DNA of 48,405 nt from positions 1 through 48,405 of the IMG/VR virus record IMGVR_UViG_2932088517_000001; one strand, given 5' to 3'. Source of the stretch: a virus. This document shows positions 1 to 48,405 of the stretch, piece after piece. Below the pieces are notes generated by a model. The model did not search any database and had not been told where the DNA came from. It saw only the letters and a program-made list of their open reading frames with translations. The position numbers and the translations under genes were made by a program. Position 1 is the stretch's first letter, and the number at the start of each line of letters is the position of its first letter.

Positions 1-95
1 TAGAAAAGGAATTAGGCGATGTGCTTTGGTAGCTGGCGGCGTTAGCAGAAACACACCATCTTGATTTAAATGAGATCGCGGAGAAGAACATTTAT
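1..95. repeat. Assembly/terminal overlap: identical to 48311-48405, so the window is a closed circle or a permuted unit of 48,310 bp
   Basis: Direct comparison of the first and last 95 nt. Confidence 0.95.
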
Positions 96-9042: not shown

Positions 9043-9101
9043 TTTAAATGACCACAACTGATATAATAAGATATACAACGAAAGTATATGAGGTGGTCAT
9101 A

Positions 9102-9737
9102 ATGGAAATCGTTTATGAAAACGATGTAGCTATTGTTGATGGATATAAGTTTAGAAAAGACAAGAAAAGTGGCTATTATCTTTCATCTAAAAAGATTGGC
9201 GCCAGTAGAATCAGACTTCATAGATATATATGGGAGAAGTACAATAATGCTCTTCCGAAAGGGTATGAGATACATCATATCGATGGGAATAAAGATAATA
9301 ATGAAATTGAAAATTTAGTAGCATTAAGTAAAAAAGAACATCTTTTATATCATGGCGAAAATGCTAGTGAAGAATTAATAAATAAATGGAAGAAAAGTTT
9401 AGAAGTAGCACGCGAAAAAGCGAAAGCATGGCATCAAAGCGAAGAAGGTAAAGCGTGGCATCGTCAACAAGCTAAAATAAGTTACGCTAAAAGAAAGCCT
9501 AAAAAATTAAAATGTAAACATTGCGGGAAAACGTACAAAACAACAAAATACGGCGATGCTAAATTTTGCTCCCCTACATGCCAAACTGCTTTTAGAGTTA
9601 AAAGTGGAGTTGACGATGTGATTAGGGAGTGTGTTGTTTGTAGTACTAGTTTTAGCATTAATAAATACAGGAAAACAAAAACTTGTTCTAAATCATGTGC
9701 AAGTAAATTAATTCATATAAATCGCAAGTCATCTTAA
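9102..9737 (+). mobile_element. Free-standing HNH homing endonuclease with C-terminal zinc-ribbon repeats
   Basis: HHIDGNKDNNEIENLVALSKKEH motif; CKHCGK...CSPTC and CVVCST...CSKSC; inserted between terL and portal; GAGGTGG RBS before ATG 9102. Confidence 0.8.
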
Positions 9738-27457: not shown

Positions 27458-27988
27458 TTATGAAAACCTACGTTTCAGTAAAGATAACTTCTTTCCTGGT
27501 TCTTCAGCATAATACTTCATGTAATCACACATCAAAATATTAATTAGTTTATCCGCTGTGTAACCGTGTAAAGGGAATGAATGAGCCATATCAGAAAAGA
27601 ATACTTCAATCCGCCTCAACGTCCTTCTATCAATTTTCACATCAATCGTTCCGTATCGTTCATCATTTTCATTAAATTCTAATTCATAATCTGTATAGTG
27701 CTTCTTACTTTCTAAAATTTGATACAGCTGCTCCATACTATTCTTAGACCTTATATGTTCCAGAAAGTCCTCCACAAGTATCTCAGCTAGATCACTAGCG
27801 TTACACTCGTAATCTTCCTCTTCCATATCTTCAATAATAATATTCATTCGGAATAAGTAGATTTTGAGCATCTTAACTTCAAAACGGTATTTCTCTTTTA
27901 ATTTTAATTCAATTTTAGTTCGTTCCCACCAGTTCCCAGCACTCATTAGCTGTATTTCTTTTGTCATCACATCGTATTTACTGTACAT
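27458..27988 (-). CDS. hypothetical acidic protein (176 aa)
   Basis: ATG 27988 has GAGAGGTGA upstream and avoids overlap with the preceding gene; the track start 28063 is unlikely. Confidence 0.55.
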   Translation of the reverse strand: MYSKYDVMTKEIQLMSAGNWWERTKIELKLKEKYRFEVKMLKIYLFRMNIIIEDMEEEDYECNASDLAEILVEDFLEHIRSKNSMEQLYQILESKKHYTDYELEFNENDERYGTIDVKIDRRTLRRIEVFFSDMAHSFPLHGYTADKLINILMCDYMKYYAEEPGKKLSLLKRRFS

Positions 27989-27999
27989 GTTGTCACCTC

Positions 28000-28380
28000 T
28001 CACATTGTGCGTAATGCAAAGCATAAAATACGTGTCGCAGCTGCTCTTTGTGATATTCCCCACTCGATTGCTAATTGGACAAGCTTAGAGTGCGCTCCCT
28101 GCTCCAATTTCGCATGGATGTACTTTTTAGTGTCTCTATATTCATACGCATGTATTTCGCTTATATAATCAATTTTGAGATGTTCTGTGATTATTTTGGA
28201 CATATATTGTGTAGTGGTTATTCCTTCTTGGAATGCTGAGGATCTTATTAGTTGTCTTTGTATTTCATTTACGGGGATTTTTACATCTTTCTTTTTATCA
28301 GAACGAGTTTTACGAGGTTGTTGGTTTGTTATTGTAGTAGATTGTTTTCGAGGTTCAAACATAGGGTTGATTACACTCAT
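28000..28380 (-). CDS. putative tandem ribbon-helix-helix DNA-binding protein (126 aa)
   Basis: Basic N-terminus, then two beta-alpha-alpha-like units (VKIPVNEIQRQLIRSSAFQEGITTTQYMSKII and YIHAKLEQGAHSKLVQLAIEWGISQRAAATRIL). Confidence 0.45.
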   Translation of the reverse strand: MSVINPMFEPRKQSTTITNQQPRKTRSDKKKDVKIPVNEIQRQLIRSSAFQEGITTTQYMSKIITEHLKIDYISEIHAYEYRDTKKYIHAKLEQGAHSKLVQLAIEWGISQRAAATRILCFALRTM

Positions 28381-28509: not shown

Positions 28510-28785
28510 TTATAAACTAAAGTCGCCATCTTTAGATAATTTAGGTCTTTTCTTTTTAGGCGCTTCTTGTTGAGGTTGTGGCTCTTCTATTGCAATAGGT
28601 GCTCCTGATACATTCGGCATATGAATACCGCTACTTCCACCATTGCTTGCAATGTAATAGCGTATTGCATGACGTACTGTTTCTGCTTTTCTGCTTCTAG
28701 GAATCTTTTTTAACCATTCATGAATGTCTTTATCTAGCTGATCATCATAACTAAGCTGATAAATTTTACTCGCCATCTTCTTCAC
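28510..28785 (-). CDS. parR: ParR-like RHH centromere-binding adaptor
   Basis: Small protein immediately downstream of and overlapping parM; N-terminal RHH-like segment, Pro/Lys-rich tail; the start may be ATG 28776. Confidence 0.55.
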   Translation of the reverse strand: MKKMASKIYQLSYDDQLDKDIHEWLKKIPRSRKAETVRHAIRYYIASNGGSSGIHMPNVSGAPIAIEEPQPQQEAPKKKRPKLSKDGDFSL

Positions 28786-29785
28786 TCACTTTAAACATCC
28801 CATATTTGAAAAATCCTTCTGCGTTTGCTTGTTGTGGTTTTTCTGCCACCTTCACGCCACCAACTAAATCTTCAATAGCGCTTGCGAACAATTCCGCTCC
28901 ACCGCCAGTAATAATGATTTCATCGAAACGATCGAACGTTTTCCATGCGTTTTTAATACCTTGTTTAATCTTTTCAGATACTTGGAACACAGCTTTCGGT
29001 TTAACTTCTTCAAAATCAATAATGTGACGTTCTGAAAGTTTATACTGTCCTGATTCAAAGAATGGTTCAACATGGTAGTATTCCACTTTAGCATTAGAAT
29101 TTTGAGAATTGATATAATCAGCGATTTCTTGATAAACATCCTTCATTCCAGCCTCAACTGATTTGAACTCGTTTTCACGACGTAGTCCAGTGATTGAGTC
29201 TAAATCTGTTGTCCCTGTTCCGATATCAATTACTCCTACACGAATATCTTCGTAACGTTCATCAGCTACGAATCCCTCTGTATCTAAGTATTGGCCCATT
29301 ACAGTTCCGATAGGTTGAGGTAAAATGATAACTTCTTCTACATTAACCTTTACTGTTTTACCCTCGATTTTTACTGTATGTAACCCTTCGAAAACTTCTT
29401 TTAGATTATTAGCAGCTTCTGTACCAATTTCGTTACTTGGTACACCTGTAATTACAATTACTTCGTCTGTTGGTTGCACTTTACTTTTAAGAGCAAGATC
29501 AGCAAGAGCAATACTTGTTAACACTTTGTATAAAGGTTCTTTATATCTGTTTTGGAATCCATAAGTTGCAAATACATCTTTTACTTTTGTAATGTCTTTT
29601 CCCCAAACATATTCGATACCTTCAATTTCATAAGTCTTTAATTTTGCTTTTTTACCTGTAATTGATTCCCCTACATCCTTTTTAAAAGCCACTAATGAAG
29701 GTAATACTCCTGCTGCAACTTCACTTCTACCTTTAATGTTCCCATTGCCGTGGTCGATTACTAATACTTTTTTCACCAAATACAC
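28766..29785 (-). CDS. parM: ParM/StbA-family actin-like segregation ATPase
   Basis: VIDHGNGNIKG, VITGVP, VIDIGTGTTD and IIITGGGAEL actin-fold motifs; the start may be TTG/GTG 29779/29776. Confidence 0.8.
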   Translation of the reverse strand: MYLVKKVLVIDHGNGNIKGRSEVAAGVLPSLVAFKKDVGESITGKKAKLKTYEIEGIEYVWGKDITKVKDVFATYGFQNRYKEPLYKVLTSIALADLALKSKVQPTDEVIVITGVPSNEIGTEAANNLKEVFEGLHTVKIEGKTVKVNVEEVIILPQPIGTVMGQYLDTEGFVADERYEDIRVGVIDIGTGTTDLDSITGLRRENEFKSVEAGMKDVYQEIADYINSQNSNAKVEYYHVEPFFESGQYKLSERHIIDFEEVKPKAVFQVSEKIKQGIKNAWKTFDRFDEIIITGGGAELFASAIEDLVGGVKVAEKPQQANAEGFFKYGMFKVSEEDGE

Positions 29786-29830
29786 AACCTTTCTAGAATC
29801 ATTGTATAAAACTTTATTATTTATAAATCA

Positions 29831-29858
29831 ATTATACAGCAGACAAACTATGTTTCAA
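29831..29858 (-). promoter_or_regulatory. Sigma-A-type promoter for parMR (TTGAAA-16-TATAAT on the - strand), flanked by AATCA-containing repeats (possible parC)
   Basis: + strand attata at 29831-29836 and tttcaa at 29853-29858; AATCA motifs near 29797, 29826 and 29880. Confidence 0.55.
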
Positions 29859-29951
29859 TAAAAATATTAAAACTCTACACAATCATACTATTAAACTTCA
29901 ATTGTTTTTATTCCTCATTTCTAAAACGTCAAAAAAGAAACAGTAGCAGTC

Positions 29952-30572
29952 TCATTTAACCCAAAACCGCCACCATTTCTTCTTCTCCTGTACAACAGCT
30001 AACAGCTTTTTAGTCTCTTGTTGTTCTCGAATCGTCTTCATGAGTAGTTCGTCATGGCTATTTATCCGTTCTCCAAGACGTTCCTCTGCTATCTGAATCG
30101 CTTCTTTCATCTGTTGCTTCATTTCTTCTTTAAGTTCTTGTTTAATCTCATCTCTAAGTTGTTCTTTCAATTCATATTTCCAATCATTAAAAGCTAGTTC
30201 TTTCAGTTCCTTCAAGGCTTTATCACGGTCGTTATCTCTAATAAGAGGCGCAGGAACAGCCCCCGTTCCACCATTCCTATCTTCTAAATTGTATTCTTCG
30301 GCTATGACTTTAGCAGCCATGGAACGTGTCGTTCCAACGTTCCCGATAAGCGATTGGAACTTTCGTAATGCTACCAAGTCATGTTCCGTGAAAGCGCGGT
30401 TCTCTCTATTTTTTCCGTCCTTAACTTTGATAAATTTATATCCGTTCTTCTCAAGTTCCAAACACCATTTACGTAAGTAACTGTCACTTATGCCAAGAGT
30501 TTCAGCGACTTCTTTTGTCCAATAAGATTTTTCTAATGAGTCACGATCCCCGTTCCAATGTTCCTTATCCAT
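29952..30572 (-). CDS. MerR-type HTH protein with a C-terminal coiled coil (DUF3967-like)
   Basis: YWTKEVAETLGISDSYLRKWCLELEKNGY... then a charged heptad region; divergent from rep. Confidence 0.6.
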   Translation of the reverse strand: MDKEHWNGDRDSLEKSYWTKEVAETLGISDSYLRKWCLELEKNGYKFIKVKDGKNRENRAFTEHDLVALRKFQSLIGNVGTTRSMAAKVIAEEYNLEDRNGGTGAVPAPLIRDNDRDKALKELKELAFNDWKYELKEQLRDEIKQELKEEMKQQMKEAIQIAEERLGERINSHDELLMKTIREQQETKKLLAVVQEKKKWWRFWVK

Positions 30573-30651
30573 TTTTATTCGTTCCTCCTTCCGTTCCTAT
30601 TGCAACATTCTCGCCAAAAAGTGTCAATCCTCCCTAAAAGTTTTTGACAAT

Positions 30652-30682
30652 AAAAAAGAAGACAAGCATCGCGCTTATCTTC
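30652..30682 (-). terminator. Intrinsic terminator, - strand, upstream of the MerR-like promoter
   Basis: On the - strand: gaagataagc-gcgat-gcttgtcttc followed by ttttttatt. Confidence 0.55.
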
Positions 30683-30689
30683 CTTCGCC

Positions 30690-30718
30690 TTGTAACTATA
30701 TGAAACTTGTATTACAAT
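30690..30718 (+). promoter_or_regulatory. Candidate rep promoter TTGTAA-17-TACAAT
   Basis: -35 at 30690-30695, -10 at 30713-30718; gives a leader of about 200 nt. Confidence 0.5.
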
Positions 30719-30748
30719 TGTTGTAGAAATTAATCGAATAAATGAGAA

Positions 30749-30792
30749 AGAGCCCTAAATCCTCCGCGACCAAACTTTGGATTTAAGACTCT
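30749..30792. promoter_or_regulatory. Large hairpin in the rep leader (12 of 14 bp); on the - strand it is followed by a U-rich tract, so it is a candidate counter-transcript terminator
   Basis: agagccctaaatcc ... ggatttaagactct. Confidence 0.45.
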
Positions 30793-30923
30793 CTGATAAG
30801 TTACACAAGGTGTATACCCTGTTGTTAATTAATTTATGTCTCTATGATATCAAATTTAATCAATAAGGTAAATACTTTTATCTCCTTGTGTGACTTCCTT
30901 TTATTCTCTAAGGAGGTCTATTT

Positions 30924-32237
30924 GTGTTAGCTATACGGCAATCACAGGAAACATTTATTGATGAATGGCATGAATGCTATCTATCAGAACATAAAAAAAG
31001 CGGATATATAGCCGTTTTAGATCTAAGCGGTAGCGAGAAGAAGCAATTATGGATAGGCACGAACGATGTTAAAACTCTTTCAAACATGTCTACCCCTTCA
31101 AATAAGGACTTTTATCTATCTCTGAATAGTTTCACATTCGGAAGTAGGAAAGCGACAGATTTAAAGCAAATAAGAAATATTGGTGTGGATCTAGATTTTT
31201 ATAAGTTGGATATTTCAAAAGAATACGTGATTCAGAATTTACAAGATTGTATCGCTGAAGGATTGTTACCATGTCCAAACCTTGTAATGTACGGAAGAGG
31301 AATGCAGCTGATTTACACTGTACAAGGCGGAGCTGCCCCGCAAATGGCGTTTTTATCTCAATACATAACGAATCATTTCATAAAGATGTTAATGCCATTA
31401 GGAGCCGATGGATCATGCAGTGACCTTTCAAGGGTTTTACGTATGCCATATACGACTCATAGCAAAACTGGAAAGCAAATAGGTCTTGAAATTTGGACAA
31501 GACGTGAGCATGATTTACAAGAATTATATGATTATGTGCCACCTTTAGAGAAGAAGAGACAACCAAAACGCACCGCGACACGTAAAAAAGGGTCAATTTC
31601 AACTATTCCGAGTCAAAAAGGCGTGATGAACCTTTATAGTTTGAATACAAAAAGGAAATCCGATCTAGAGAAGATTGTAATGCTCAGAAACGGCGAAATA
31701 GAGCATAGACACGACATGACATACATTTATGCCTTTACCACTGCTTTAATCGTTAAAAACCAAACAGCGACGCTAGAAATGACGTTTCAATTAAACAATA
31801 AGTTCAAAGAACCACAGAAACGAAAAGAAATAGAACGGACGGCAAAAGATGCGTACAAAGATGCGATTGCATTTTTCGATGCTTTTTCGGCTAACAACTT
31901 CAGTAAACAAGGATTACCATACAGTTTAATAAAACCAATGAAAACAGAGACGATTTTTAAAAAACTAGACATTAAACTGACAGAAGAAGAGCTTGAAGTA
32001 ATGGATACACTGATTGATTCTGAAGAAATTAAGAAGAGAGACAAGCTAAGAAAACGAAAAGCACGTGGATCTGTGAGCAAAGATGAATATTCTAAGAAAT
32101 TATCTGAGGGGAAAAACGAAAAAATAGAAAGTATAAAGAAAAGTATAAAAGAAAATCCAAAAGCCTCTATCAGAAAAATAGCCGAAATAACAGGATTGTC
32201 CAAGTCAGTAGTAGCTAGATTAAGAAAAGAAATATAG
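30924..32237 (+). CDS. plasmid-type replication initiator (Rep), C-terminal HTH
   Basis: GTG start after AAGGAGG; FYLSLNSFTFGSRK...NIGVDLDF motif reminiscent of primase-polymerase/Rep initiators; C-terminal IRKIAEITGLSKSVVARLRKEI. Confidence 0.6.
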   Translation: MLAIRQSQETFIDEWHECYLSEHKKSGYIAVLDLSGSEKKQLWIGTNDVKTLSNMSTPSNKDFYLSLNSFTFGSRKATDLKQIRNIGVDLDFYKLDISKEYVIQNLQDCIAEGLLPCPNLVMYGRGMQLIYTVQGGAAPQMAFLSQYITNHFIKMLMPLGADGSCSDLSRVLRMPYTTHSKTGKQIGLEIWTRREHDLQELYDYVPPLEKKRQPKRTATRKKGSISTIPSQKGVMNLYSLNTKRKSDLEKIVMLRNGEIEHRHDMTYIYAFTTALIVKNQTATLEMTFQLNNKFKEPQKRKEIERTAKDAYKDAIAFFDAFSANNFSKQGLPYSLIKPMKTETIFKKLDIKLTEEELEVMDTLIDSEEIKKRDKLRKRKARGSVSKDEYSKKLSEGKNEKIESIKKSIKENPKASIRKIAEITGLSKSVVARLRKEI

Positions 32238-32335
32238 TGTCCTATAGCTGTCCCTTTAAAGCATAAGTTATATGTGTTTTTAGTCCATAGAAGAAGTGTC
32301 CCACCCTTGTCCTTTTAAAGCAATAGTTATATGCG
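32237..32335 (+). repeat. Two 40-bp imperfect direct repeats (iteron-like), period 59 bp, directly after rep
   Basis: gtgtcctatagctgtccctttaaagcataagttatatgtg vs gtgtcccacccttgtccttttaaagcaatagttatatgcg (31/40 identical by hand alignment). Confidence 0.8.
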
Positions 32336-32390
32336 CACTGGTCTGTCTCTTAAAACAGTAGTATCTGAGTTGTTAACTATTTAACTCTTA

Positions 32391-32413
32391 ACCTCCTATT
32401 TAGGGGGTTTTTA
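32391..32413 (+). terminator. Intrinsic terminator
   Basis: acctcc-tattta-gggggt followed by ttttatt. Confidence 0.55.
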
Positions 32414-32565
32414 TTATGGTGGGGGGACTGTTAGAATAGGCCCTATTTCCGAATTTGGTTTTATCATTCATCTACAGTACGTGAAATTTCATAAGTTGAA
32501 TATTTGTTTTATACATGTTTTATTTTACAATTGATTAGAATGATGAAATTTAAGGGGAAAATTTT

Positions 32566-33237
32566 ATGACTATTAATCTTATAGAAAAGAATTGGATAGA
32601 TGATTTTATTAAAACCGATGCATTTTCAGAGGCATTAGGAATGGTATGGCGTAATGGTTATAAATCAGCAGGTTATTTTCAATTTACTCATAAATCACAA
32701 GCAATGGTAAAGAAGTTTGCTGATTTCTTTGGGAGAGAAACAAGATCAAGATATCGTGAAGACAAAGGATATGTGGAATGGTATATGACTATGAATAGTG
32801 GTCATCCGTTTATCAGAAAAGCAAAAGAATTAGGGTGGACTCCAATACAAGAAAAATCTAGGGCATTTCCTAAAGGTGAGTTTAACAAAGAAGTATTTGT
32901 TAAGACTTATATTTTAATGAGACACGATGTAGGAATAATGAGAGAGAAACGTCCTAAAAATAAGATTTATACTAGACCCCGTTTACGCATTCATGGATCT
33001 ACAGACATATTGGAACACTTAAATGAGTTTATGTTCGAGGAATTAGGGATTAAAAAGAAGAAATTACAGACTGACAGTAAAATAGCAAAAGCAAAAACGT
33101 TATATTTTCAATCATATAAAGATATAGAGAGTATTTTGAAATACATTGGCGCTTCAGAAACGTTAGAAATGTTATATTCGTTTGATTTAGGTTTTCATGA
33201 TGCCGATGAATTTAAAGAGACCCATCTAAGGGAATAG
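32566..33237 (+). CDS. hypothetical protein, possibly a degenerate LAGLIDADG-fold protein
   Basis: Two half-domains with LAGLIDADG-like helices (EALGMVWRNGY; KTYILMRHDVG) and an RLRIHGSTDILEHLNEFMFEELGIK segment. Confidence 0.3.
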   Translation: MTINLIEKNWIDDFIKTDAFSEALGMVWRNGYKSAGYFQFTHKSQAMVKKFADFFGRETRSRYREDKGYVEWYMTMNSGHPFIRKAKELGWTPIQEKSRAFPKGEFNKEVFVKTYILMRHDVGIMREKRPKNKIYTRPRLRIHGSTDILEHLNEFMFEELGIKKKKLQTDSKIAKAKTLYFQSYKDIESILKYIGASETLEMLYSFDLGFHDADEFKETHLRE

Positions 33238-34371: not shown

Positions 34372-34716
34372 TCAGAACGTATCTTGGTTATCTTTAATCA
34401 TTTGAATGAACAATAACACTTGATTGCAAAAACGCTCTTTCTGAGCATCGTCTAACGCCCCATACGTTGACCTAGCTTCAGAAATGACTTGCTGTATTGG
34501 TTCATCCTCGAAATTGTTAGAGAAACCTACAAGGACGTCTAAAGAAACGTTGAAAAAGGAGGCGATACTCGCTAAAGTTTGAATATCAGGTTGGAATCGA
34601 TTAGTTTCCCAATTCTTAATTTGACTCTGACTTAAATTAAGAGTTTCAGCTAACTCCGCTTGTGTTAAATCACGCGACTTTCTTAATTGTTTTAAAGTTT
34701 GTCCAAAGATTATCAT
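34372..34716 (-). CDS. XRE/cI-like repressor number 2 (114 aa)
   Basis: LKQLRKSRDLTQAELAETLNLSQSQIKNWE HTH plus a C-terminal dimerisation-like region. Confidence 0.75.
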   Translation of the reverse strand: MIIFGQTLKQLRKSRDLTQAELAETLNLSQSQIKNWETNRFQPDIQTLASIASFFNVSLDVLVGFSNNFEDEPIQQVISEARSTYGALDDAQKERFCNQVLLFIQMIKDNQDTF

Positions 34717-34787
34717 AGTAATTTAAGTATAAATATTGCACTATCATACTACTATAATAAGTTGTTTTATTAACCGAATTACAAAAT

Positions 34788-34804
34788 TAGTTGTTAAACA
34801 ACTA
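34788..34804. promoter_or_regulatory. Perfect palindrome TAGTTGTT-A-AACAACTA (operator candidate); half-sites also at 34759-34766 and 34231-34238
   Basis: Read directly; half-sites lie upstream of both the 34716 and 34173 genes. Confidence 0.55.
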
Positions 34805-34850
34805 AAATTTAAAAACAAAATAGAACAAAAGTTCGTATTCTGTGGTAAAA

Positions 34851-34885
34851 TATGCATGTGAGGTCTTTATTATGTCACATGCATA
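34851..34885. promoter_or_regulatory. 11-bp inverted repeat TATGCATGTGA-N13-TCACATGCATA overlapping a TGGTAAAAT extended -10
   Basis: Read directly; followed by a T-rich tract. Confidence 0.45.
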
Positions 34886-34910
34886 ATTGCATATTTTATT
34901 TTTGTACAAC

Positions 34911-34941
34911 TTGAAAAACGTTGATATGAAGCGTTTTTCAA
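34911..34941. terminator. 10-bp hairpin ttgaaaaacg ... cgtttttcaa (bidirectional terminator-like)
   Basis: Read directly. Confidence 0.4.
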
Positions 34942-34992
34942 ACTTTCTCAATAATTGTCTGACAATCATAGGACTGAATATTGGGAAATTTG

Positions 34993-35001
34993 TGGTATTA
35001 T
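34993..35001 (+). promoter_or_regulatory. Extended -10 element TGGTATTAT, candidate aimR promoter (about 200-nt structured leader)
   Basis: Same TGTGGTA context as the element at 34843-34851; leader hairpins at 35042-35071 and 35076-35091. Confidence 0.4.
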
Positions 35002-35214
35002 GAAAACAAATAAAATAAACGGACGTGAAAAAAGACCCACGGTGTAAGTAGTGTTGGAAGCACTCTTACACTGCCCCCTAAGTGCCTAGGGAACATTGTC
35101 GCGGATCTTGTACATACATATTATAACACACCTTAGATTGAAAGTGGCGCGTTTTCCTTTATATGTAACAAATTGGGGTTTACGTGTCTTTTGTCCATAA
35201 GGAGGACAAAGATT

Positions 35215-36399
35215 GTGCGAGTTTTATTAGATTTGAACGACATGAAGGAATGTTTAAAAACAAATGGTTATACGAATCGAAAATTAGCAACACGTTTCAA
35301 AGTAACGCACACTACAGTAAATAGTTATTTTAACAAACAAGGTAAATTTGATTTTATGCACTTAGTTGACGCACTTCGGTTATATAAACCTAAAGATGTT
35401 GAATTCCGAAGAAATTGTATTAAAGAGTATATACCGACATTGTCACATAAAAATTTAAAGTTAGCGTTAGAAGTTCTGGATATGTTCGGAGAGTACGATC
35501 TTCAAGAACTTGTAATTGAACAGATTTTGAATTCGCAAACAAAAAAAGGTGATTCTTTAACTGTACGAACCAATGTAAGAATTGCTGAGTTTTATCAACT
35601 GCTTGGGCAAAGAAGCGCAGGTACTATTACTGTAAGAGATTTTTTTGAAAAGGTCGAAAAGAAGAGAGATTTACAAAAAAATACAGAAAATGATTTGATG
35701 ATTATATCAGATTTTAGTGCAATGTATTCGTATTTAGATTTTAGTAATTATCAAAAGGTTAATGAATATATCGAAAGCGCATTACCCCGAATTGAAAAAA
35801 TTTCAAAACATACAAATAAAAATTCATTTTTACTTCGTGTGAAAGAAATGAAAGTTTCTATTCATTTACACAACAAAGGGGACTTAAATAGAGCGCGTGA
35901 AATCTGCTTAGAAATTTTAAATGACCCTTTTAACTATTATGTAAGTACGAAAGCAATCGCTTATTGTAAGTTAGGTGAAAGTTATGCGCTGACTGATTAC
36001 GAAAAGGCGAAACACTATATTTGTAAAGCACTTGAAATTATCGGGGAACCAACCAACAAAAAATTAGAAATAAGAAAAAATAAAATATTAAACGTTTTTT
36101 TATTTCTAAAAATACATCACGGAAAAGAATTGGATACAATTGATCGTACGAAACTTGATTTAGCAGAGCTTGCGTTTTTTTATATAAGAATAGGAAAAAA
36201 AGAAGAAGCTATAGAAATACTTAGAGGTCTAAAAAAACAAAACGGTTACCTTAGTAGTTTTCAGTTGTATTATATGGGTCTTGCAGTTGGAGGGGAAGAA
36301 GGGAAAAGATACCTAGAAATGTCCGCAGAAAGTTTTTCTAAATCAGGTGATTTTTTCTATATTTCTCTACCAAAAGAAGCCCTAAAATGTTATAATTGA
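35215..36399 (+). CDS. aimR: AimR-like arbitrium receptor (HTH + TPR, RRNPP-type), 394 aa
   Basis: GTG 35215 has AAGGAGG 8 nt upstream; N-terminal HTH (YTNRKLATRFKVTHTTVNSYF); TPR-like repeats (e.g. LGESYALTDYEKAKHYICKALEI); followed by the secreted-peptide gene. Confidence 0.7.
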   Translation: MRVLLDLNDMKECLKTNGYTNRKLATRFKVTHTTVNSYFNKQGKFDFMHLVDALRLYKPKDVEFRRNCIKEYIPTLSHKNLKLALEVLDMFGEYDLQELVIEQILNSQTKKGDSLTVRTNVRIAEFYQLLGQRSAGTITVRDFFEKVEKKRDLQKNTENDLMIISDFSAMYSYLDFSNYQKVNEYIESALPRIEKISKHTNKNSFLLRVKEMKVSIHLHNKGDLNRAREICLEILNDPFNYYVSTKAIAYCKLGESYALTDYEKAKHYICKALEIIGEPTNKKLEIRKNKILNVFLFLKIHHGKELDTIDRTKLDLAELAFFYIRIGKKEEAIEILRGLKKQNGYLSSFQLYYMGLAVGGEEGKRYLEMSAESFSKSGDFFYISLPKEALKCYN

Positions 36400-36425
36400 G
36401 GCATATATAAAAGGTGGTGAAACAC

Positions 36426-36566
36426 TTGAAAACCAAGATTTTAAGCTTAGTTTTAGCGATTGCGGCTGCTGCAACATTTACATTTGCGCCAGCTACAAAA
36501 CAAAGTAAAGTTGAAGAAGTAAACGCGCCAGTATTATATATGGATCCAAATCCAGGTGGCGGTTGA
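36426..36566 (+). CDS. aimP: AimP-like secreted pro-peptide (46 aa)
   Basis: TTG start 7 nt after AAGGTGGTGA; MKTKILSLVLAIAAAATFTFAPATKQSKVEEVNAPVLYMDPNPGGG*; signal-peptide-like N-terminus, Gly-rich C-terminus. Confidence 0.65.
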   Translation: MKTKILSLVLAIAAAATFTFAPATKQSKVEEVNAPVLYMDPNPGGG

Positions 36567-36587
36567 TTTATATAGATAATAATATTA

Positions 36588-36621
36588 GAAATGACACTAT
36601 CAAACTGGATAGTGTCATTTC
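36588..36621 (+). promoter_or_regulatory. Perfect 14-bp inverted repeat after aimP (terminator and/or AimR operator), followed by direct repeats TTATAGAGAA at 36626 and 36654
   Basis: gaaatgacactatc-aaactg-gatagtgtcatttc. Confidence 0.6.
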
Positions 36622-36731
36622 TGCTTTATAGAGAATGGAAACTTTTTTATAGATTATAGAGAAAAAACGACAAAAACTTTCCGCTTTTCATGATTCACAA
36701 ACTACTATGAAGATACTGGAGGATGTTGGGG

Positions 36732-36857
36732 ATGACAAAAGAGCAATTAGCAAAAGAGTTAATGGTAAAATGGTTGTTAGAAAACAAGGGGACAAATGCT
36801 GAAGATGTGTTAAAATCTCTCACTTCAGATGCATATAAAAATGAAATAGCGAAATAA
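36732..36857 (+). CDS. 41-aa ORF in the aimX position
   Basis: GGAGG 9 nt upstream; MTKEQLAKELMVKWLLENKGTNAEDVLKSLTSDAYKNEIAK*; convergent with the cI-like gene. Confidence 0.45.
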   Translation: MTKEQLAKELMVKWLLENKGTNAEDVLKSLTSDAYKNEIAK

Positions 36858-36890
36858 AAAAAGCTAACCAAACGGTTAGCTTTTTGTTTA
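36856..36890. terminator. Bidirectional intrinsic terminator
   Basis: aaagctaacc-aaac-ggttagcttt flanked by A and T runs. Confidence 0.7.
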
Positions 36891-36892
36891 CA

Positions 36893-37240
36893 TTAATCAT
36901 TATCTTTTGTTTTTGTGAAGTTGACATACATTAAAGCTTGTTTCCAAGCATTTTCTTGCTCCGCCTCTGGTAAATCCGCAACTAACTCTGCAAAACGCTT
37001 AGCCATATCATTAGTAACTTTATCTTCCGATTCAGTTAAACGTGAGTCTGATGATCTCCCTAATAAGTAATCAGATGTTACACAAAATAAATCAGCAAGT
37101 GCATTAAGTACAGTCATACTAGGTTCTATTCGATTATTTTCTAAGTGTGAATACGTCGCTCGGGATATATTTAATGAGTTAGCTATATCACCTTGCGTAC
37201 GCTTTCCCCTCAATTGTTTTAATTTATCTCCAAAAGTCAT
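36893..37240 (-). CDS. XRE/cI-like repressor number 1 (115 aa)
   Basis: LKQLRGKRTQGDIANSLNISRATYSHLE HTH; divergent from the cro-like gene. Confidence 0.8.
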   Translation of the reverse strand: MTFGDKLKQLRGKRTQGDIANSLNISRATYSHLENNRIEPSMTVLNALADLFCVTSDYLLGRSSDSRLTESEDKVTNDMAKRFAELVADLPEAEQENAWKQALMYVNFTKTKDND

Positions 37241-37280
37241 TTTTAATTTTCCCCTCTCAGTGAATCCTTAATTACATTAT

Positions 37281-37372
37281 AGATACAATTTTTATCACTT
37301 TAAACCCCTTTTCGTAAAAATGATAAAAAATTTATAAAAGTTGTTGACGATAAATTTTTTATCATCTATACT
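37281..37372. promoter_or_regulatory. Genetic-switch region: 17-bp operators TGATAAA-AAA-TTTATCA (37281-97 imperfect, 37321-37, 37348-64) and rightward promoter TTGACG-17-TATACT (37344-37372)
   Basis: Operator 37348-64 fills the promoter spacer; leftward TTTAAA-17-TATAAT on the - strand at 37276-37304. Confidence 0.65.
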
Positions 37373-37414
37373 AAAGACATCGAAAGAAACGTGTTAAGAA
37401 CGGAAGGTGGTTAA

Positions 37415-37636
37415 ATGAAAGTCGATCTAAAGCAAGAAAGAAAAACAATGAAATTAACTCAAAGTGAATTAGCTGAAAAGCTTGGTATATCAACGGTTTA
37501 TGTTCGTAAAATCGAAAACGGATATTTACCTAGACCTGACATAATGGTTAAATATCAGGATGTTTTTAATATAAGTGTTACCGAGTTATTCCCTGAATAT
37601 TTTGCGGTATTTAATGATAAAAAATTTATCATTTAG
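37415..37636 (+). CDS. Cro-like XRE HTH protein (73 aa)
   Basis: LTQSELAEKLGISTVYVRKIE; first gene of the rightward early operon. Confidence 0.75.
   Translation: MKVDLKQERKTMKLTQSELAEKLGISTVYVRKIENGYLPRPDIMVKYQDVFNISVTELFPEYFAVFNDKKFII
37615..37631. promoter_or_regulatory. Fourth, perfect copy of the operator palindrome TGATAAAAAATTTATCA at the 3' end of the cro-like gene
   Basis: Read directly. Confidence 0.5.
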
Positions 37637-38566: not shown

Positions 38567-38580
38567 ACGGAGGAATGGAA

Positions 38581-39165
38581 ATGGAATCAGTTAGACAATT
38601 ACCAATCACACTTAATGAATCAGGGGATTTAGTTATTAAAAGAAGTAACGATGTAATGATTGAAAAATTATTTGCATTAGTACAAACGCAATTCGCGAGT
38701 CAAAGCAACATGTTAGAAGAGGTTGGTCAAGATGTAGGGAAGCTTGGCGAAGCGGTTGATATGCATACAGAAAAAGTCGAAACGCTAGACCAAACTGTAG
38801 GGAGTTTTGACGAAAGACTTACAAAAGCGCAGTTATCAAACGTAGCATCGAAAATAATCCGTGATGATTTACAAAAGGATCGCCATAAGAAAGCATCTGA
38901 ATTTGTAGGCGATAAAGTTCAACTTACAATTGATTCGATTTGCGGAACGTCCGACGAAGTAGATAAAGCATTCCGCAAATTAAAGAAAAAAGAAACAACG
39001 AAAGTCGCAAAGCAAATAGCGTCATACGTGAAATATCAACTTGGTTTTAAACGTTCAGATTCAATCGATGATATACCAAATTGTTTAGTTAAAAAACACA
39101 AGCAACTTGTTAAAGAACTTACATGGCCAAAGCTAAATAATTTCACACAAAAGGGTGGCAAATAA
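38581..39165 (+). CDS. hypothetical protein
   Basis: ATG 38581 better spaced from GGAGG than 38575. Confidence 0.55.
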   Translation: MESVRQLPITLNESGDLVIKRSNDVMIEKLFALVQTQFASQSNMLEEVGQDVGKLGEAVDMHTEKVETLDQTVGSFDERLTKAQLSNVASKIIRDDLQKDRHKKASEFVGDKVQLTIDSICGTSDEVDKAFRKLKKKETTKVAKQIASYVKYQLGFKRSDSIDDIPNCLVKKHKQLVKELTWPKLNNFTQKGGK

Positions 39166-41512: not shown

Positions 41513-41715
41513 AGCGCGCGATAGACGAGCTTAAGAAGTCGTTAAAAGTAGAAAAAAAGAAATTAAGTGATTACGAGTTTAAGTTACGAAATTTGAAAGA
41601 ACATGAGATTTTACTTCGCGAATCAATTGTCGATGTGAAAATAACAATCTCTGATATAGAAGAAACAGTTTCAACATTAGAAATAATGACGGAAGGAGCT
41701 GATATCAGTGAATAA
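41509..41715 (+). CDS. hypothetical coiled-coil protein
   Basis: TTG start overlapping the upstream stop. Confidence 0.5.
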   Translation: MKRAIDELKKSLKVEKKKLSDYEFKLRNLKEHEILLRESIVDVKITISDIEETVSTLEIMTEGADISE

Positions 41716-42379
41716 AAGCCAAACAATCACTGAATTAGCTAAGGCATTAGTGAAATTCAATTCAGAAGTTAACAAAATAGCAAAGGATGCAGACAATCCT
41801 TTCTTTAAAAACAACTATGCAACGCTAGACACGATTATAGATGAAATTAGACCAATCCTTTCTAAACATGGATTAAGTATTATGCAAATACCAAGCGGTG
41901 ATGGTCAAAACGTAACGTTAAAAACGCTCCTCTTACATGAGAGTGGCGAATGGCTTGAGTCGGACGAACTAACGATGAAGCCAGTGAAGAATGATCCGCA
42001 AGCAGTAGGAAGTTGTATCACATACGCAAGACGATATTCACTAGCAGCATTCCTTAGCTTAAACACAGGTGAAGATGATGATGGTAACGGCGCTACTTAT
42101 GGGAAGGACAAGCCTAAACCTAAAGGTAACAGTGGACAAGCACCAAGCAAACCACAAGGGAATGGCGGTAATGGTAAAGCGTCAGAAAAACAAATGAAAA
42201 TGATACATGCGAAAATAGCGCACATTTCAGCTCTAGCAAAGACTGATAAACATACTATTGAGGATACATTGAAAGGCAGTATCGGAACTGACAACCTAAG
42301 CGAGATTAGCTCGCAGATAGCATCAAAAGCGATCGAAGTGCTAATGGGATGGGAAAAGCAGTATAGCCAAGCAGGTTAA
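41708..42379 (+). CDS. erf: ERF-family single-strand annealing recombinase
   Basis: NPFFKNNYATLDTIIDEIRPILSKHGL...LLHESGEW...GSCITYARRYSLAAFL. Confidence 0.8.
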   Translation: MNKSQTITELAKALVKFNSEVNKIAKDADNPFFKNNYATLDTIIDEIRPILSKHGLSIMQIPSGDGQNVTLKTLLLHESGEWLESDELTMKPVKNDPQAVGSCITYARRYSLAAFLSLNTGEDDDGNGATYGKDKPKPKGNSGQAPSKPQGNGGNGKASEKQMKMIHAKIAHISALAKTDKHTIEDTLKGSIGTDNLSEISSQIASKAIEVLMGWEKQYSQAG

Positions 42380-42393
42380 GGAGTGAAAAACCT

Positions 42394-42570
42394 ATGTTAG
42401 ATAAAAATCAATCAAAAGTCGTCCTCCCTTCATGGGTTAGTGAGGGCGCAAAAAATGAACAAGAAATAAAAGCGAAGGCGATTGAGTACATTACTCCTGA
42501 TCGCTATCCAGGATACAAAATATTGAAAGTTAAAAATGGTATCGCGATATGCGAAAGGGAGAATGCATGA
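42394..42570 (+). CDS. hypothetical protein (58 aa, below the track cutoff)
   Basis: AAGGAG RBS; hand translation MLDKNQSKVVLPSW... Confidence 0.45.
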   Translation: MLDKNQSKVVLPSWVSEGAKNEQEIKAKAIEYITPDRYPGYKILKVKNGIAICERENA

Positions 42571-42812
42571 TGAAAACAGTGTACAGATCAAAACGGTATA
42601 GCTTCATTATTCCAAGTAAGACTAAAGAGAACAAATATGTTCGTGGCGAAACCAAAACGGAAATCGGATTCAAAATATACGAATGGTCGAAAAAAGGTTA
42701 CGAATGCGTTTATCCAGCAAGAAAAGTTGTAAATGCGGAAAGTGTTCATAGAACTGGCGAAATCGATGAAACAGATTGCTTCTATGAAACGGAAATGAAG
42801 AAGGTGAACTAA
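42567..42812 (+). CDS. hypothetical protein (81 aa)
   Basis: ATGA coupling. Confidence 0.55.
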   Translation: MMKTVYRSKRYSFIIPSKTKENKYVRGETKTEIGFKIYEWSKKGYECVYPARKVVNAESVHRTGEIDETDCFYETEMKKVN

Positions 42813-43688
42813 ATGGCAGATGTTAAATGGATAAAACTCTCTACTAGCATGTTTGAAGATGAAAAGATTCGATTGATTGAAAGTTTACCAGATGCAGACA
42901 CACTACTAATCATTTGGATTAAATTGTTGTCTCAAGCGGGCAGGACAAATGCTAATGGTTACATTTTCTTGAGTGAAAACATTCCTTTCACAGAAGAAAT
43001 GCTCTCAACACTTTTTAATAGACCGATAGCAACTGTGAGACTTGCATTACAAACGTTCAAACAGTTCGGAATGATAGACATCACTGATGATCAGTACATT
43101 TGTATCTCGAATTGGGAGAAACACCAGAACATCGATGGGTTAGAACGTGTAAAACAATTGAATGCAGAACGAAACAAAAAGTACCGTGAACGTAAGAAAC
43201 AACAGCAATTAGCACTAGAAAACAAGGGTGGAGAAAATGACGTTTGCGTGACGTCACGTGACGATACAGATATAGAAGAAGATAAAGAATTAGATATAGA
43301 TAAAGAGAAAGATAAAAAGAAGAAAGAAAAACCTTCTCGTCACAAGTTTGAAACTTGCGACATCAACGGGGCTAAGTATTTGTTTGAAAAAATTAAGGGT
43401 AACAATCCTAAACAAAAAGAGCCTAACTTCGATAATTGGGCAAATGAATTTAGATTAATGCGAGAACGTGATAATAGAGAACCACAAGAGATTAAAGATG
43501 TTATTGATTGGTGCCAAGCAGATCCATTTTGGCAAGGGAATATCTTATCTCCTAAAAAGCTACGTGAGAAGTTTGATCAACTTACTATTCAGATGAAATC
43601 TAAAAAGGGAGCGAAGAACAATGCAGAGAGCGATAGCAGCAGTACCAGACACTATAGCCAAAAGGGTCAATATGACTATGGTTTCTGA
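42813..43688 (+). CDS. phage replisome organiser (DnaD-like)
   Basis: N-terminal WIKLSTSMFEDEKIRLIESLPDADTLLIIWIKLLSQAG typical of the phage_rep_org_N domain; DnaD-like C-terminus. Confidence 0.75.
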   Translation: MADVKWIKLSTSMFEDEKIRLIESLPDADTLLIIWIKLLSQAGRTNANGYIFLSENIPFTEEMLSTLFNRPIATVRLALQTFKQFGMIDITDDQYICISNWEKHQNIDGLERVKQLNAERNKKYRERKKQQQLALENKGGENDVCVTSRDDTDIEEDKELDIDKEKDKKKKEKPSRHKFETCDINGAKYLFEKIKGNNPKQKEPNFDNWANEFRLMRERDNREPQEIKDVIDWCQADPFWQGNILSPKKLREKFDQLTIQMKSKKGAKNNAESDSSSTRHYSQKGQYDYGF

Positions 43689-44430
43689 TATTTGTGAAAC
43701 TCATAAAATGACAATGATGAATTTCAAGGGTCAAGTTGTATGTCCTAGATGCGTTCTTGAAAGTGAAAGTAAGAAACTTCAGGAACACGAACAAGCGAAA
43801 TGGGAAGCTGATCAGGCGAATGAACAGAAAATTTTGTTCCACCAACAGAGTATGATTGCTGATAGCAATATTAAGAAAGCTAATTTTGATAACTACCAAC
43901 CTACTAGCGATGAAGGAGCGAAGAACTTGGAACTCGCAAAGGTCATCGCAACAGATTACCTAAACGGAAAGATTTTTAACACGATTATGGCCGGGAATTG
44001 CGGAGCAGGGAAAACGCATCTTGCTTATGCTATCGCAGATCAACTTGCAGGAGCAGGTAAGTCAGTTGTCTTCGTTACAGTAGGCGAATTGCTACGGAAA
44101 ATCAAAAGTACTTTTAGTAAAGAATCTACATTAACTGAAGATGCAATTATAAGAGGCTTAGTAAGAGCGGAAGTATTAATAGTCGATGATTTAGGAGCTG
44201 AGTTAGGTGCGTTAGATGCGAATACAAAAGCGACAAACTTCATTAATAGGGTGTTATTCGATGTTTTCGATGGTAGGCAAGGTAAATCTACTATCTTCAC
44301 AACAAACCTCACAGGGAAGCGTTTAGACGAGGCATATGATGAGCGGATTGTATCGCGTATTCTAAACAATTTCAGAACGATTACTTTTAAGGATACAAAG
44401 GATTATAGAAGAAAGGCACTACCATTCTAA
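43621..44430 (+). CDS. DnaC/IstB-like AAA+ helicase loader
   Basis: Walker A GNCGAGKTHLAYAI, Walker B LIVDDLG; N-terminal Cys4; the start may be ATG 43672. Confidence 0.8.
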   Translation: MQRAIAAVPDTIAKRVNMTMVSDICETHKMTMMNFKGQVVCPRCVLESESKKLQEHEQAKWEADQANEQKILFHQQSMIADSNIKKANFDNYQPTSDEGAKNLELAKVIATDYLNGKIFNTIMAGNCGAGKTHLAYAIADQLAGAGKSVVFVTVGELLRKIKSTFSKESTLTEDAIIRGLVRAEVLIVDDLGAELGALDANTKATNFINRVLFDVFDGRQGKSTIFTTNLTGKRLDEAYDERIVSRILNNFRTITFKDTKDYRRKALPF

Positions 44431-47953: not shown

Positions 47954-48145
47954 ATGAAGGCTGAACATATCGAACTTTATGAACAAGCGCTGAATCACGA
48001 ACAAGGACAAGCTAGTAAATGGTTTTGCGAGGTTAATAATTTAGAAGCGCAATTACAAATAGCAAAGTCACATTATAAGCATCACACGGAAGAAAGAGAT
48101 AGACTACAAACTTTAGTTGTGAGATGGAAGGGGCAGAAACAATGA
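47954..48145 (+). CDS. hypothetical protein (63 aa)
   Basis: AAGGGG RBS. Confidence 0.55.
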   Translation: MKAEHIELYEQALNHEQGQASKWFCEVNNLEAQLQIAKSHYKHHTEERDRLQTLVVRWKGQKQ

Positions 48146-48405
48146 ACTTTAAAGAATATCAAACAGCAGTTACAAGAACATTTGCAGTAGGAAGAACATA
48201 CGAGCAGGACGCTACAAACTACGCTATGGGATTATGTGGGGAAGCAGGAGAAGTTACGGACCATATCAAGAAGGCGGTATATCATGGCCATAATTTAAAT
48301 GAAGACGAAGTAGAAAAGGAATTAGGCGATGTGCTTTGGTAGCTGGCGGCGTTAGCAGAAACACACCATCTTGATTTAAATGAGATCGCGGAGAAGAACA
48401 TTTAT
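48142..48405 (+). pseudogene. mazG: MazG-like NTP pyrophosphohydrolase, 5' part, with an in-frame TAG at 48340-48342
   Basis: MNFKEYQTAV...GLCGEAGEVTDHIKK...EKELGDVLW*LAALAE; the frame continues into bases 33-164 of the window. Confidence 0.7.

Follow-up and report, generated by a model that had tools for sequence, protein, structure and literature searches.

How does a temperate phage persist in its host when no integration module can be recognized in its genome? This question is raised by IMG/VR virus record IMGVR_UViG_2932088517_000001, positions 1 to 48,405, which was analysed at its full length and is referred to here as the window. Positions 28,510 to 32,413 hold a replication gene (rep) and a partition cassette, from which the original prediction, made on the letters alone, had read a phage-plasmid that remains outside the chromosome. 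Our analysis agrees with it: with a probability that we put at about 85%, the prophage of this siphovirus of the Bacillus cereus group would be kept as a low-copy circular plasmid, not integrated, through the combined action of a Rep initiator, an antisense RNA and a ParMR partition system. This reading was preferred because no recombinase was found, the contig is self-closing, Rep shares 84% identity with gp77 of phage IEBH over its full length, phage PfNC7401 equals plasmid pNC1, and further relatives occur in plasmid records. By analogy with these systems, we infer that the element itself is actually maintained as a plasmid.

The search for an integration module covered all open reading frames (ORFs) of at least 120 aa, and those without family assignment were re-examined at E <= 1. 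None of them matched families of tyrosine or serine recombinases, resolvases or protelomerases, and the unassigned ones gave no recombinase-like signal even at the relaxed threshold. Likewise, tblastn with one tyrosine and one serine recombinase from related plasmids was negative against the window (best E 0.037 over 19 aa). The claimed absence of an integrase was thus upheld, and the recombinase that a first inspection could have missed did not appear. An integrase remnant upstream of terS, where a pBClin29-like relative has a 179-aa integrase, was also considered and rejected, tblastn finding none in the window.

The window corresponds to the whole contig of 48,405 nt, as given in the database entry of its Rep, and has no host flanks. 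Its two ends are identical:

1..95 = 48311..48405, no strand: terminal overlap, an exact direct repeat of 95 nt, giving a unit length of 48,310 bp

The contig is either circular or a circularly permuted genome, of 48,310 bp. Its G+C content is 36% and no tRNA genes were found in the 48,405 nt. Nearly all genes lie on the plus strand; the exception is a block transcribed leftward (about 27.1-30.6 kb), over which the GC skew is reversed. According to Pfam, the packaging and head genes are intact (TerS, TerL, SPP1-type portal and minor capsid protein) and are accompanied by tail and lysis genes (tail terminator, Gp15, Sipho_tail, tail endopeptidase, GDSL tail protein and amidase endolysin). The structural, packaging and lysis set of a tailed phage, as looked for in a phage-plasmid, is complete. 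In our reading, the window contains the entire genome of a temperate B. cereus-group siphovirus.

A plasmid with a defective phage, no longer inducible, would also replicate and partition, without giving virions. The MazG pyrophosphohydrolase gene, which carries an in-frame TAG, might speak for such decay. Yet the genes for terminase, portal, capsid, tail and endolysin, and those of the holin region, are uninterrupted ORFs that match their families strongly, and relatives of the same layout (IEBH, PfNC7401, PfIS075, 250 and LY4) are isolated phages, so that we regard a defective phage as improbable. The MazG gene itself extends from 48124-48405 across the junction into 96-148 (Pfam MazG 2.3e-13 when read through). 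Its TAG lies at 48340-48342 (equal to 30-32) in the context LW*LA, at a position where we presume a Tyr to be expected. It could reflect a pseudogene, a sequencing error or readthrough.

The plasmid state is best documented among relatives. IEBH is reported to be a circular plasmid in its lysogens, and a ~2-kb fragment with the gp77 gene to replicate autonomously in B. thuringiensis (PMC4113786). The Rep module of the window recurs in PfNC7401, a phage identical to plasmid pNC1 from the closed genome of B. cereus NC7401 (PMC5590980). IEBH was further listed with a ParM, a ribbon-helix-helix (RHH) protein and no recombinase (Piligrimova et al., Table 1, PMC8026635), and the 'IEBH community' comprises 83 phage-plasmids (Pfeifer et al. 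2021, PMC7969092). More generally, phage-plasmids make up a large and often misannotated share of Bacillus plasmids and phages (PMC7969092, PMC8026635). The nearest deposited phages, all from the B. cereus group, were PfNC7401, PfIS075, IEBH, 250 and LY4, aligning over 17-33% of each genome half with DNA identities of 83-87%; PfNC7401 and IEBH are classified in Cecivirus. Segments of the window were also common to several hundred Bacillus plasmid records. Relatives of the Rep region (86-93% DNA identity) were located on Bacillus plasmids of 46-65 kb, a part of them registered as complete circles, and in IMG/VR mostly on contigs of 37-57 kb (range 23-79 kb). When Rep and ParMR are considered together, close relatives are found on Bacillus plasmid records of 42-56 kb. 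An exact look-up of the window Rep in public assemblies gave no match. One 6-kb contig with a Rep 84% identical and the rep leader (L010, NZ_JAYLLN010000068.1) is attributed to Sphingobacterium tenebrionis; this Bacillus-type Rep is probably a contamination of that assembly. As the reading rests on homology to the experimentally characterised IEBH system, the phage-plasmid lifestyle itself was already known for the group; what is new here is a conserved, covarying RNA in the rep leader.

The replicon, built on an archaeo-eukaryotic primase (AEP) with a helix-turn-helix (HTH), is composed of the following features:

30924..32237, plus strand: rep, 437 aa (PHROG 9432 'replication protein', 1.9e-274)
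Within rep, plus strand: Rep domains according to model and profiles, namely AEP primase (residues ~1-205), disordered linker (209-235), helical domain and C-terminal HTH
30690..30718, plus strand: candidate rep promoter TTGTAA-17-TACAAT, kept in all relatives
30650..30837, minus strand: candidate countertranscript RNA of ~190 nt, antisense to the rep leader, with a 16-bp covarying stem-loop
30872..30844, minus strand: countertranscript promoter TTTACC-17-TATCAT, with conserved hexamers
30686..30654, minus strand: intrinsic terminator of the countertranscript, a G+C-rich hairpin followed by a U-run, pairing in all lineages
32236..32333, plus strand: origin candidate starting at the rep stop codon, a putative Rep-binding site with two copies of TGTCC(C/T)TTTAAAGCA..GTTATATG (cores 32249-32274 and 32308-32333)
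32390..32409, plus strand: conserved terminator-like hairpin of intrinsic type, ending the rep unit

By sequence, Pfam and PDB searches recognized only the C-terminal HTH of Rep (HTH_24 5.5e-4, below cutoff); no PDB entry was matched, by single sequence or by profile, and fold comparison alone succeeded. The AlphaFold model, built with 30 homologues, reached a mean confidence (pLDDT) of 84.5, and Foldseek related its N-terminal ~205 residues to the PrimPol of cyanophage S-2L (6zp9, 7.9e-7) and to RepB' of RSF1010 (3h25, 7e-4). Residues D89 and D91 (DxD, motif I) are invariant among homologues, and Q128 (GRGMQ, at the position of motif II) is nearly so. Rep thereby displays the AEP catalytic fold, the DxD and one of the residues (His, Tyr or Gln) that family PrimHYQ has at the motif II position. 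PriCT_1 was detected at E 0.13 only (residues 281-312), the C-terminal half of the model being helical, and no helicase domain was found in Rep. The Rep of IEBH was previously assigned to PrimHYQ (Kazlauskas et al. 2018, PMC5862659), a family characterized by a primase domain, PriCT-1 and HTH without helicase, sister to Inc18 RepE/RepS and related to ColE2 Rep (PMC5862659). According to its model, Rep is thus an AEP primase-type initiator of family PrimHYQ and not an iteron-type Rep.

This distinction modifies the original prediction, which had correctly announced a 437-aa Rep-type initiator and had seen iteron-like repeats behind it. Its model matches AEP primases, no Rep_3-type Pfam match was found in the window and there is no iteron array. 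The repeats consist of two imperfect 39-nt copies (32236-32274 and 32295-32333) spaced 59 nt apart, and reduce to one conserved site of ~26 nt, TGTCC(C/T)TTTAAAGCA..GTTATAT, which is duplicated in the window. This motif begins 10-14 nt past the rep stop codon in every relative aligned and was found nowhere else in the window. IEBH, PfNC7401 and Z4 have a single copy; two copies occur in the window and in a few other relatives. Classical iterons were rejected, the site being single in IEBH, the experimentally validated replicon. Replicons of the pAMbeta1/ColE2 type have a single origin site immediately downstream of rep, and by analogy the site is a candidate Rep-binding origin.

Two observations were made further downstream. 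A non-coding stretch of ~100 nt past the rep terminator (32410-32510) was conserved in most Rep relatives. Three Bacillus plasmid records (H70-H72; 43, 380 and 472 kb) also matched it, at 88-89% identity and in DNA that lacks annotation; a promoter, a small RNA or a site of single-strand initiation might reside there. The origin region is directly followed by a 223-aa ORF (32566-33237, plus strand), which belongs to PHROG 6640 and gave a LAGLIDADG_WhiA match at E 0.063.

Conservation of the 260 nt located 5' of rep exceeded that of the rep gene itself. Covariation was examined in 13 distinct leader sequences, with slid partners and 500 shuffles as controls. Paired cells amounted to 95.8%, against 44-58% with slid partners; 12 pairs had changed on both sides and none of the 500 shuffles reached the observed score. 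The structure points to the minus strand: several of its pairs are G-U there, and the corresponding plus-strand bases (C and A) would not pair. Likewise, the fold z-score was -5.15 for the minus-strand RNA versus -3.06 for the plus-strand leader. The promoter hexamers of the countertranscript were retained even where the spacer and the surrounding leader of relatives were unrelated. In the terminator hairpin the sequence varied between lineages, pairing being always kept and the U-run occurring in all variants. Rfam returned nothing relevant between 27.0 and 37.5 kb at E <= 1. The leader thus has the traits expected of copy control by countertranscript, since a predicted RNA of conserved structure lies antisense to it and brings along a promoter and a terminator. 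The conserved minus-strand structure is best explained as a countertranscript of ~190 nt, overlapping ~110 nt of the rep mRNA leader, the mRNA being expected to start from the candidate promoter at 30690-30718, and this antisense RNA probably sets the copy number.

Three relatives (L003, L006 and L011) have, in the stem-loop (30749-30792), a loop that is reverse-complementary to that of the window (GACCAAA... vs ...TTTGGTC), as though recombination between the two arms had flipped the hairpin. It is speculative that such an inversion alters incompatibility specificity. A more ambitious proposal, which we advance only tentatively and consider rather doubtful, is that the apparently uncatalogued ~190-nt countertranscript of these PrimHYQ replicons sets the copy number of phage-plasmids, and that its two mirror-image loop orientations, together with swappable ParM/ParM'/ParA cassettes, yield compatible co-resident replicons. 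If so, the antisense RNA of one loop type would not kiss the mRNA loop of the other type, and several such phage-plasmids could share one Bacillus cell.

The partition cassette and its neighbour lie leftward of rep:

28766..29785, minus strand: parM, an actin-like partition ATPase of a pSK41-like lineage (Pfam, NCBIfam, PHROG and PDB)
28510..28785, minus strand: gene of a ParR-like adaptor of 88-91 aa, with a probable start at 28776 (M4), overlapping the parM stop codon
29786..29951, minus strand: parMR control region with a promoter and an imperfect inverted repeat, candidate parC
29858..29831, minus strand: parMR promoter TTGAAA-16-TATAAT, with 11 of 12 consensus positions, the best match of the region
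29952..30572, minus strand: gene of a DUF3967 protein (5.2e-11) with a weak MerR-type N-terminal HTH, an accessory insertion between parM and rep

The actin-like ParM, already recognized from the translation, found matches in all four collections: Pfam (ALP_N 5.8e-22 and MreB-like_C 5.8e-14, ParM_N being also matched), NCBIfam (PRK13917, 8e-102 over the full length, with 340.9 bits below the curated cutoff of 417), PHROG 691 'partition protein' (1.5e-73) and PDB (best match pSK41 ParM 3js6, 1.2e-28). Its translation carries the phosphate-1 (VIDHGNGN), phosphate-2 (VIDIGTGTTD) and adenosine (ITGGGAELF) motifs expected of the actin-fold ATPase in a ParMRC system.

The small ORF after parM is, with moderate confidence, a ParR-type RHH adaptor. 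Position, size, overlap and pairing with ParM agree with the adaptor originally proposed; resemblance to known ParR proteins is marginal. Its best PDB match was the RHH domain of pSK41 ParR (2q2k, E 0.64 as a single sequence and 0.042 as a profile), and the NCBIfam ParR model gave 1.5e-4, far below cutoff. Homologues begin at M4 (28776) and were found in B. cereus-group elements only, on contigs that reach ~106 kb and often measure 41-54 kb; in all three relatives looked at, the gene directly follows that of ParM. Conserved parts are an N-terminal KIYQL segment, two helices and a basic C-terminal tail (KKKRPKL..DG.F). The model comprises an N-terminal extended segment or strand, two helices in an RHH-like arrangement and a disordered linker.

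The strong parMR promoter was also confirmed, and p52 retains both hexamers despite a different spacer. The AATCA repeats formerly suggested as parC did not stand: three copies in the 166 nt upstream of parM, versus 0.78 expected, are barely above chance (Poisson p ~0.045, marginal) and too weak to define a centromere. A k-mer repeat scan of the parM upstream regions in the window and four relatives revealed no tandem array. The best parC candidate is the imperfect inverted repeat that flanks the promoter (~29870-29890 and ~29793-29813), of which a cleaner 12-nt version occurs in the diverged relative L036.

Just downstream of parR, a gene at 28000-28380 (minus strand) codes for 126 aa with weak matches to RepB/RepA-type regulators and NikA (E ~1e-2 to 1e-4) and, by eye, two RHH-like repeats. 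This gene was found at 86-89% DNA identity in BMBtp3, Waukesha92, phiS58, TP21T and CUBc25, phages otherwise without matches to that 5-kb region.

The divergent MerR-like regulator of the original prediction exists as a gene at 29952-30572 (minus strand); its product is a DUF3967 protein, and MerR_1 remained sub-threshold (19.4 bits vs a cutoff of 21.6). Since IEBH, PfNC7401 and p52 have no such gene between parM and rep, the gene was considered an accessory insertion and not a core part of the replicon. It is present in other Bacillus plasmids, including beside the same rep in p47. The window ParM is 25% identical to that of IEBH and the two ParR proteins are unrelated; the parMR cassette of the window shares 89-95% identity with three Bacillus plasmids of 42-52 kb. 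The same Rep lineage adjoins three partition cassettes (IEBH-type ParM, window-type ParM and ParA), as expected of a modular plasmid replicon. By these comparisons the partition cassette is swapped relative to IEBH. Through Rep, ParM and the ParR-like protein, the window unites the plasmid-type initiator and the partition system that characterize a phage-plasmid.

Genes of the lysis-lysogeny switch (34372..37636) and of a second replication and recombination set (41708..44430) complete the picture:

34372-34716 and 36893-37240, minus strand: XRE repressors
35173-36399, plus strand: AimR (Pfam AimR 1.4e-42)
36414-36566, plus strand: AimP-like prepeptide of 50 aa, ending ...LYMDPNPGGG, directly after AimR
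37415-37636, plus strand: Cro-like gene
41708-42379, plus strand: Erf
42813-43688, plus strand: replisome organiser
43621-44430, plus strand: DnaC/IstB-like loader

Two XRE repressors and a Cro-like gene surround the arbitrium pair, an arrangement also known from phage B83 and further plasmid prophages of Bacillus. All three members of the second set, announced at 41.7-44.4 kb as Erf, organiser and DnaC-like loader, were present. Given the position of its genes, the example of P1 and what has been published on these phages, this module presumably serves lytic replication, and the two replication modules would share their tasks accordingly.

ParM and Rep might instead act in productive infection by a non-lysogenic or pseudolysogenic phage, as suspected for the ParM homologues of SPO1-like 'BigBertha' phages. 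Indeed, Pfeifer et al. note that in some virulent Bacillus phages a partition homologue need not be a sign of a plasmid state (PMC7969092). The window, for its part, carries CI-like repressors and a complete arbitrium pair, a homologous Rep fragment replicates on its own, and antisense-RNA copy control and a downstream origin are features of plasmid maintenance; we give this explanation hardly any credit.

Several observations weigh against the plasmid reading or its parts. Circularly permuted virion DNA would likewise give a self-closing contig. The adaptor resembles known ParR proteins weakly (NCBIfam 21.8 bits vs a cutoff of 140; PDB profile E 0.042), a fold search with its monomer model gave no meaningful match, and for parC there is only a candidate site. 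The Shine-Dalgarno sequence was sequestered in both leader folds tried, so that no mode of RNA control follows from them; a switch of the leader to a Shine-Dalgarno-sequestering hairpin upon antisense binding was rejected, as this hairpin forms in both. For multimer resolution, neither a recombinase (tblastn) nor a dif-like site (scan with <=3 mismatches) was found. Finally, two clusters of Rep homologues (56-60% identity) each list one contig >1 Mb.

These large contigs would fit an element that integrates through a host recombinase (cf. CTXphi and XerCD) or an unrecognised phage recombinase, Rep and ParMR then serving nothing but an episomal phase, transient or alternative. Unassigned ORFs of ~200 aa (494-1135, 27458-28063, 32566-33237 and 38575-39165) could be invoked in the same sense. 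Against integration stand the lack of recombinase signal at E <= 1 in the ORFs without family, the absence from the window of any dif-like site within 3 mismatches of the Firmicute dif consensus, and the fact that close relatives are separate plasmids in closed genomes. The sole chromosomal record looked at, CP170571.1 (L008, titled B. toyonensis chromosome), has a Rep copy 93% identical in the stretch 4382020-4391330. Its ORFs abut exactly, with no intergenic DNA, and its rep lacks both leader and ribosome-binding site; the record looks like concatenated coding sequences, and it was rejected as evidence of integration. In the same record, rep runs through its stop codon into the origin motif. 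Taken together, integration appears very improbable, and the window displays the absence of an integration module that is typical of phage-plasmids.

Under the preferred plasmid reading, Rep would, in the lysogen, bind the conserved site downstream of its own gene (32249-32333), open and prime the origin, and so launch theta replication by host enzymes. The ~190-nt antisense RNA, running from 30837 to 30650 on the strand opposite to the rep leader, would throttle the supply of Rep. The divergent parMR operon would segregate the copies: ParR, as an RHH dimer, may bind DNA near its own promoter, and its conserved C-terminal tail may capture ParM filaments that push sister plasmids apart. Arbitrium (AimR/AimP) and CI/Cro-like genes would choose between lysis and lysogeny, and after induction the separate Erf/replisome-organiser/DnaC-like loader module would drive lytic replication. 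We infer the biochemical roles of these parts.

Such an element would be predicted to pass vertically to daughter cells, as a low-copy plasmid under partition control, and horizontally to new hosts, in virions, and recognizing it as a phage-plasmid changes how it is counted in plasmid versus prophage catalogues. The mapped replicon is compact (~1.8 kb, with the rep promoter, antisense RNA, AEP-primase Rep and 26-nt origin site) and could serve as a vector backbone for Bacillus. The association of the same Rep with three partition cassettes illustrates the modular evolution of these elements. Current understanding is not overturned by our findings.

Apart from these subjects, an HNH endonuclease ORF (9048-9737, plus strand, HNH_3 9.6e-16) was observed between the large terminase and portal genes; it may code for a homing endonuclease or a packaging-associated HNH protein.

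Compared with known systems, the window resembles phage P1 in concept, both having a plasmid replicon and partition for lysogeny and a separate lytic replication. The parts are unrelated: an iteron-binding RepA, ParAB/parS and Cre/lox dimer resolution in P1, versus an AEP primase Rep, ParMR and no recombinase in the window. For partition, the nearest solved relatives of ParM (3js6) and ParR (2q2k) belong to the type II ParMRC of Staphylococcus aureus plasmid pSK41, where parM and an overlapping parR likewise follow one upstream promoter. The window differs by its marginal ParR similarity and by the lack of evident tandem 10- or 20-bp centromere repeats upstream of parM.

For replication, plasmids of the Inc18 and ColE2 types have a single origin site just 3' of rep and an antisense RNA in the rep leader, an architecture that agrees with the candidate features of the window. 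No Cop-type repressor as in Inc18 replicons was identified in the window. The Inc18 initiators (pAMbeta1 RepE, those of pIP501, and pSM19035 RepS) and ColE2 Rep are composed of an AEP domain, a helical (PriCT-1-type) domain and an HTH, without helicase (PMC5862659), a layout that the model of the window Rep suggests as well. Yet the AEP family of the window Rep is another one (PrimHYQ, motif II with Gln), and no sequence-level match to these initiators was obtained in PDB.

The closest resemblance is to IEBH and its relatives in Cecivirus (IEBH, 250, PfNC7401 = pNC1 and PfIS075), siphoviruses with the same overall layout. IEBH and the window share Rep (84% protein identity), the conserved rep leader and the downstream origin motif; both lack an integrase and have, divergent from rep, ParM and an adaptor that is of RHH type in IEBH and probably also in the window. 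The Erf/organiser/loader module and nearby DUF4352 and XRE repressor genes are also common to IEBH-like phages and the window. In contrast to IEBH, the window has a DUF3967 gene between parM and rep, a duplicated origin motif and no IS605/TnpB copy, and the partition lineages differ (ParM 25% identical, ParR unrelated). Among the known IEBH-like phage-plasmids of Bacillus, the element ranks as a new member of mosaic composition.

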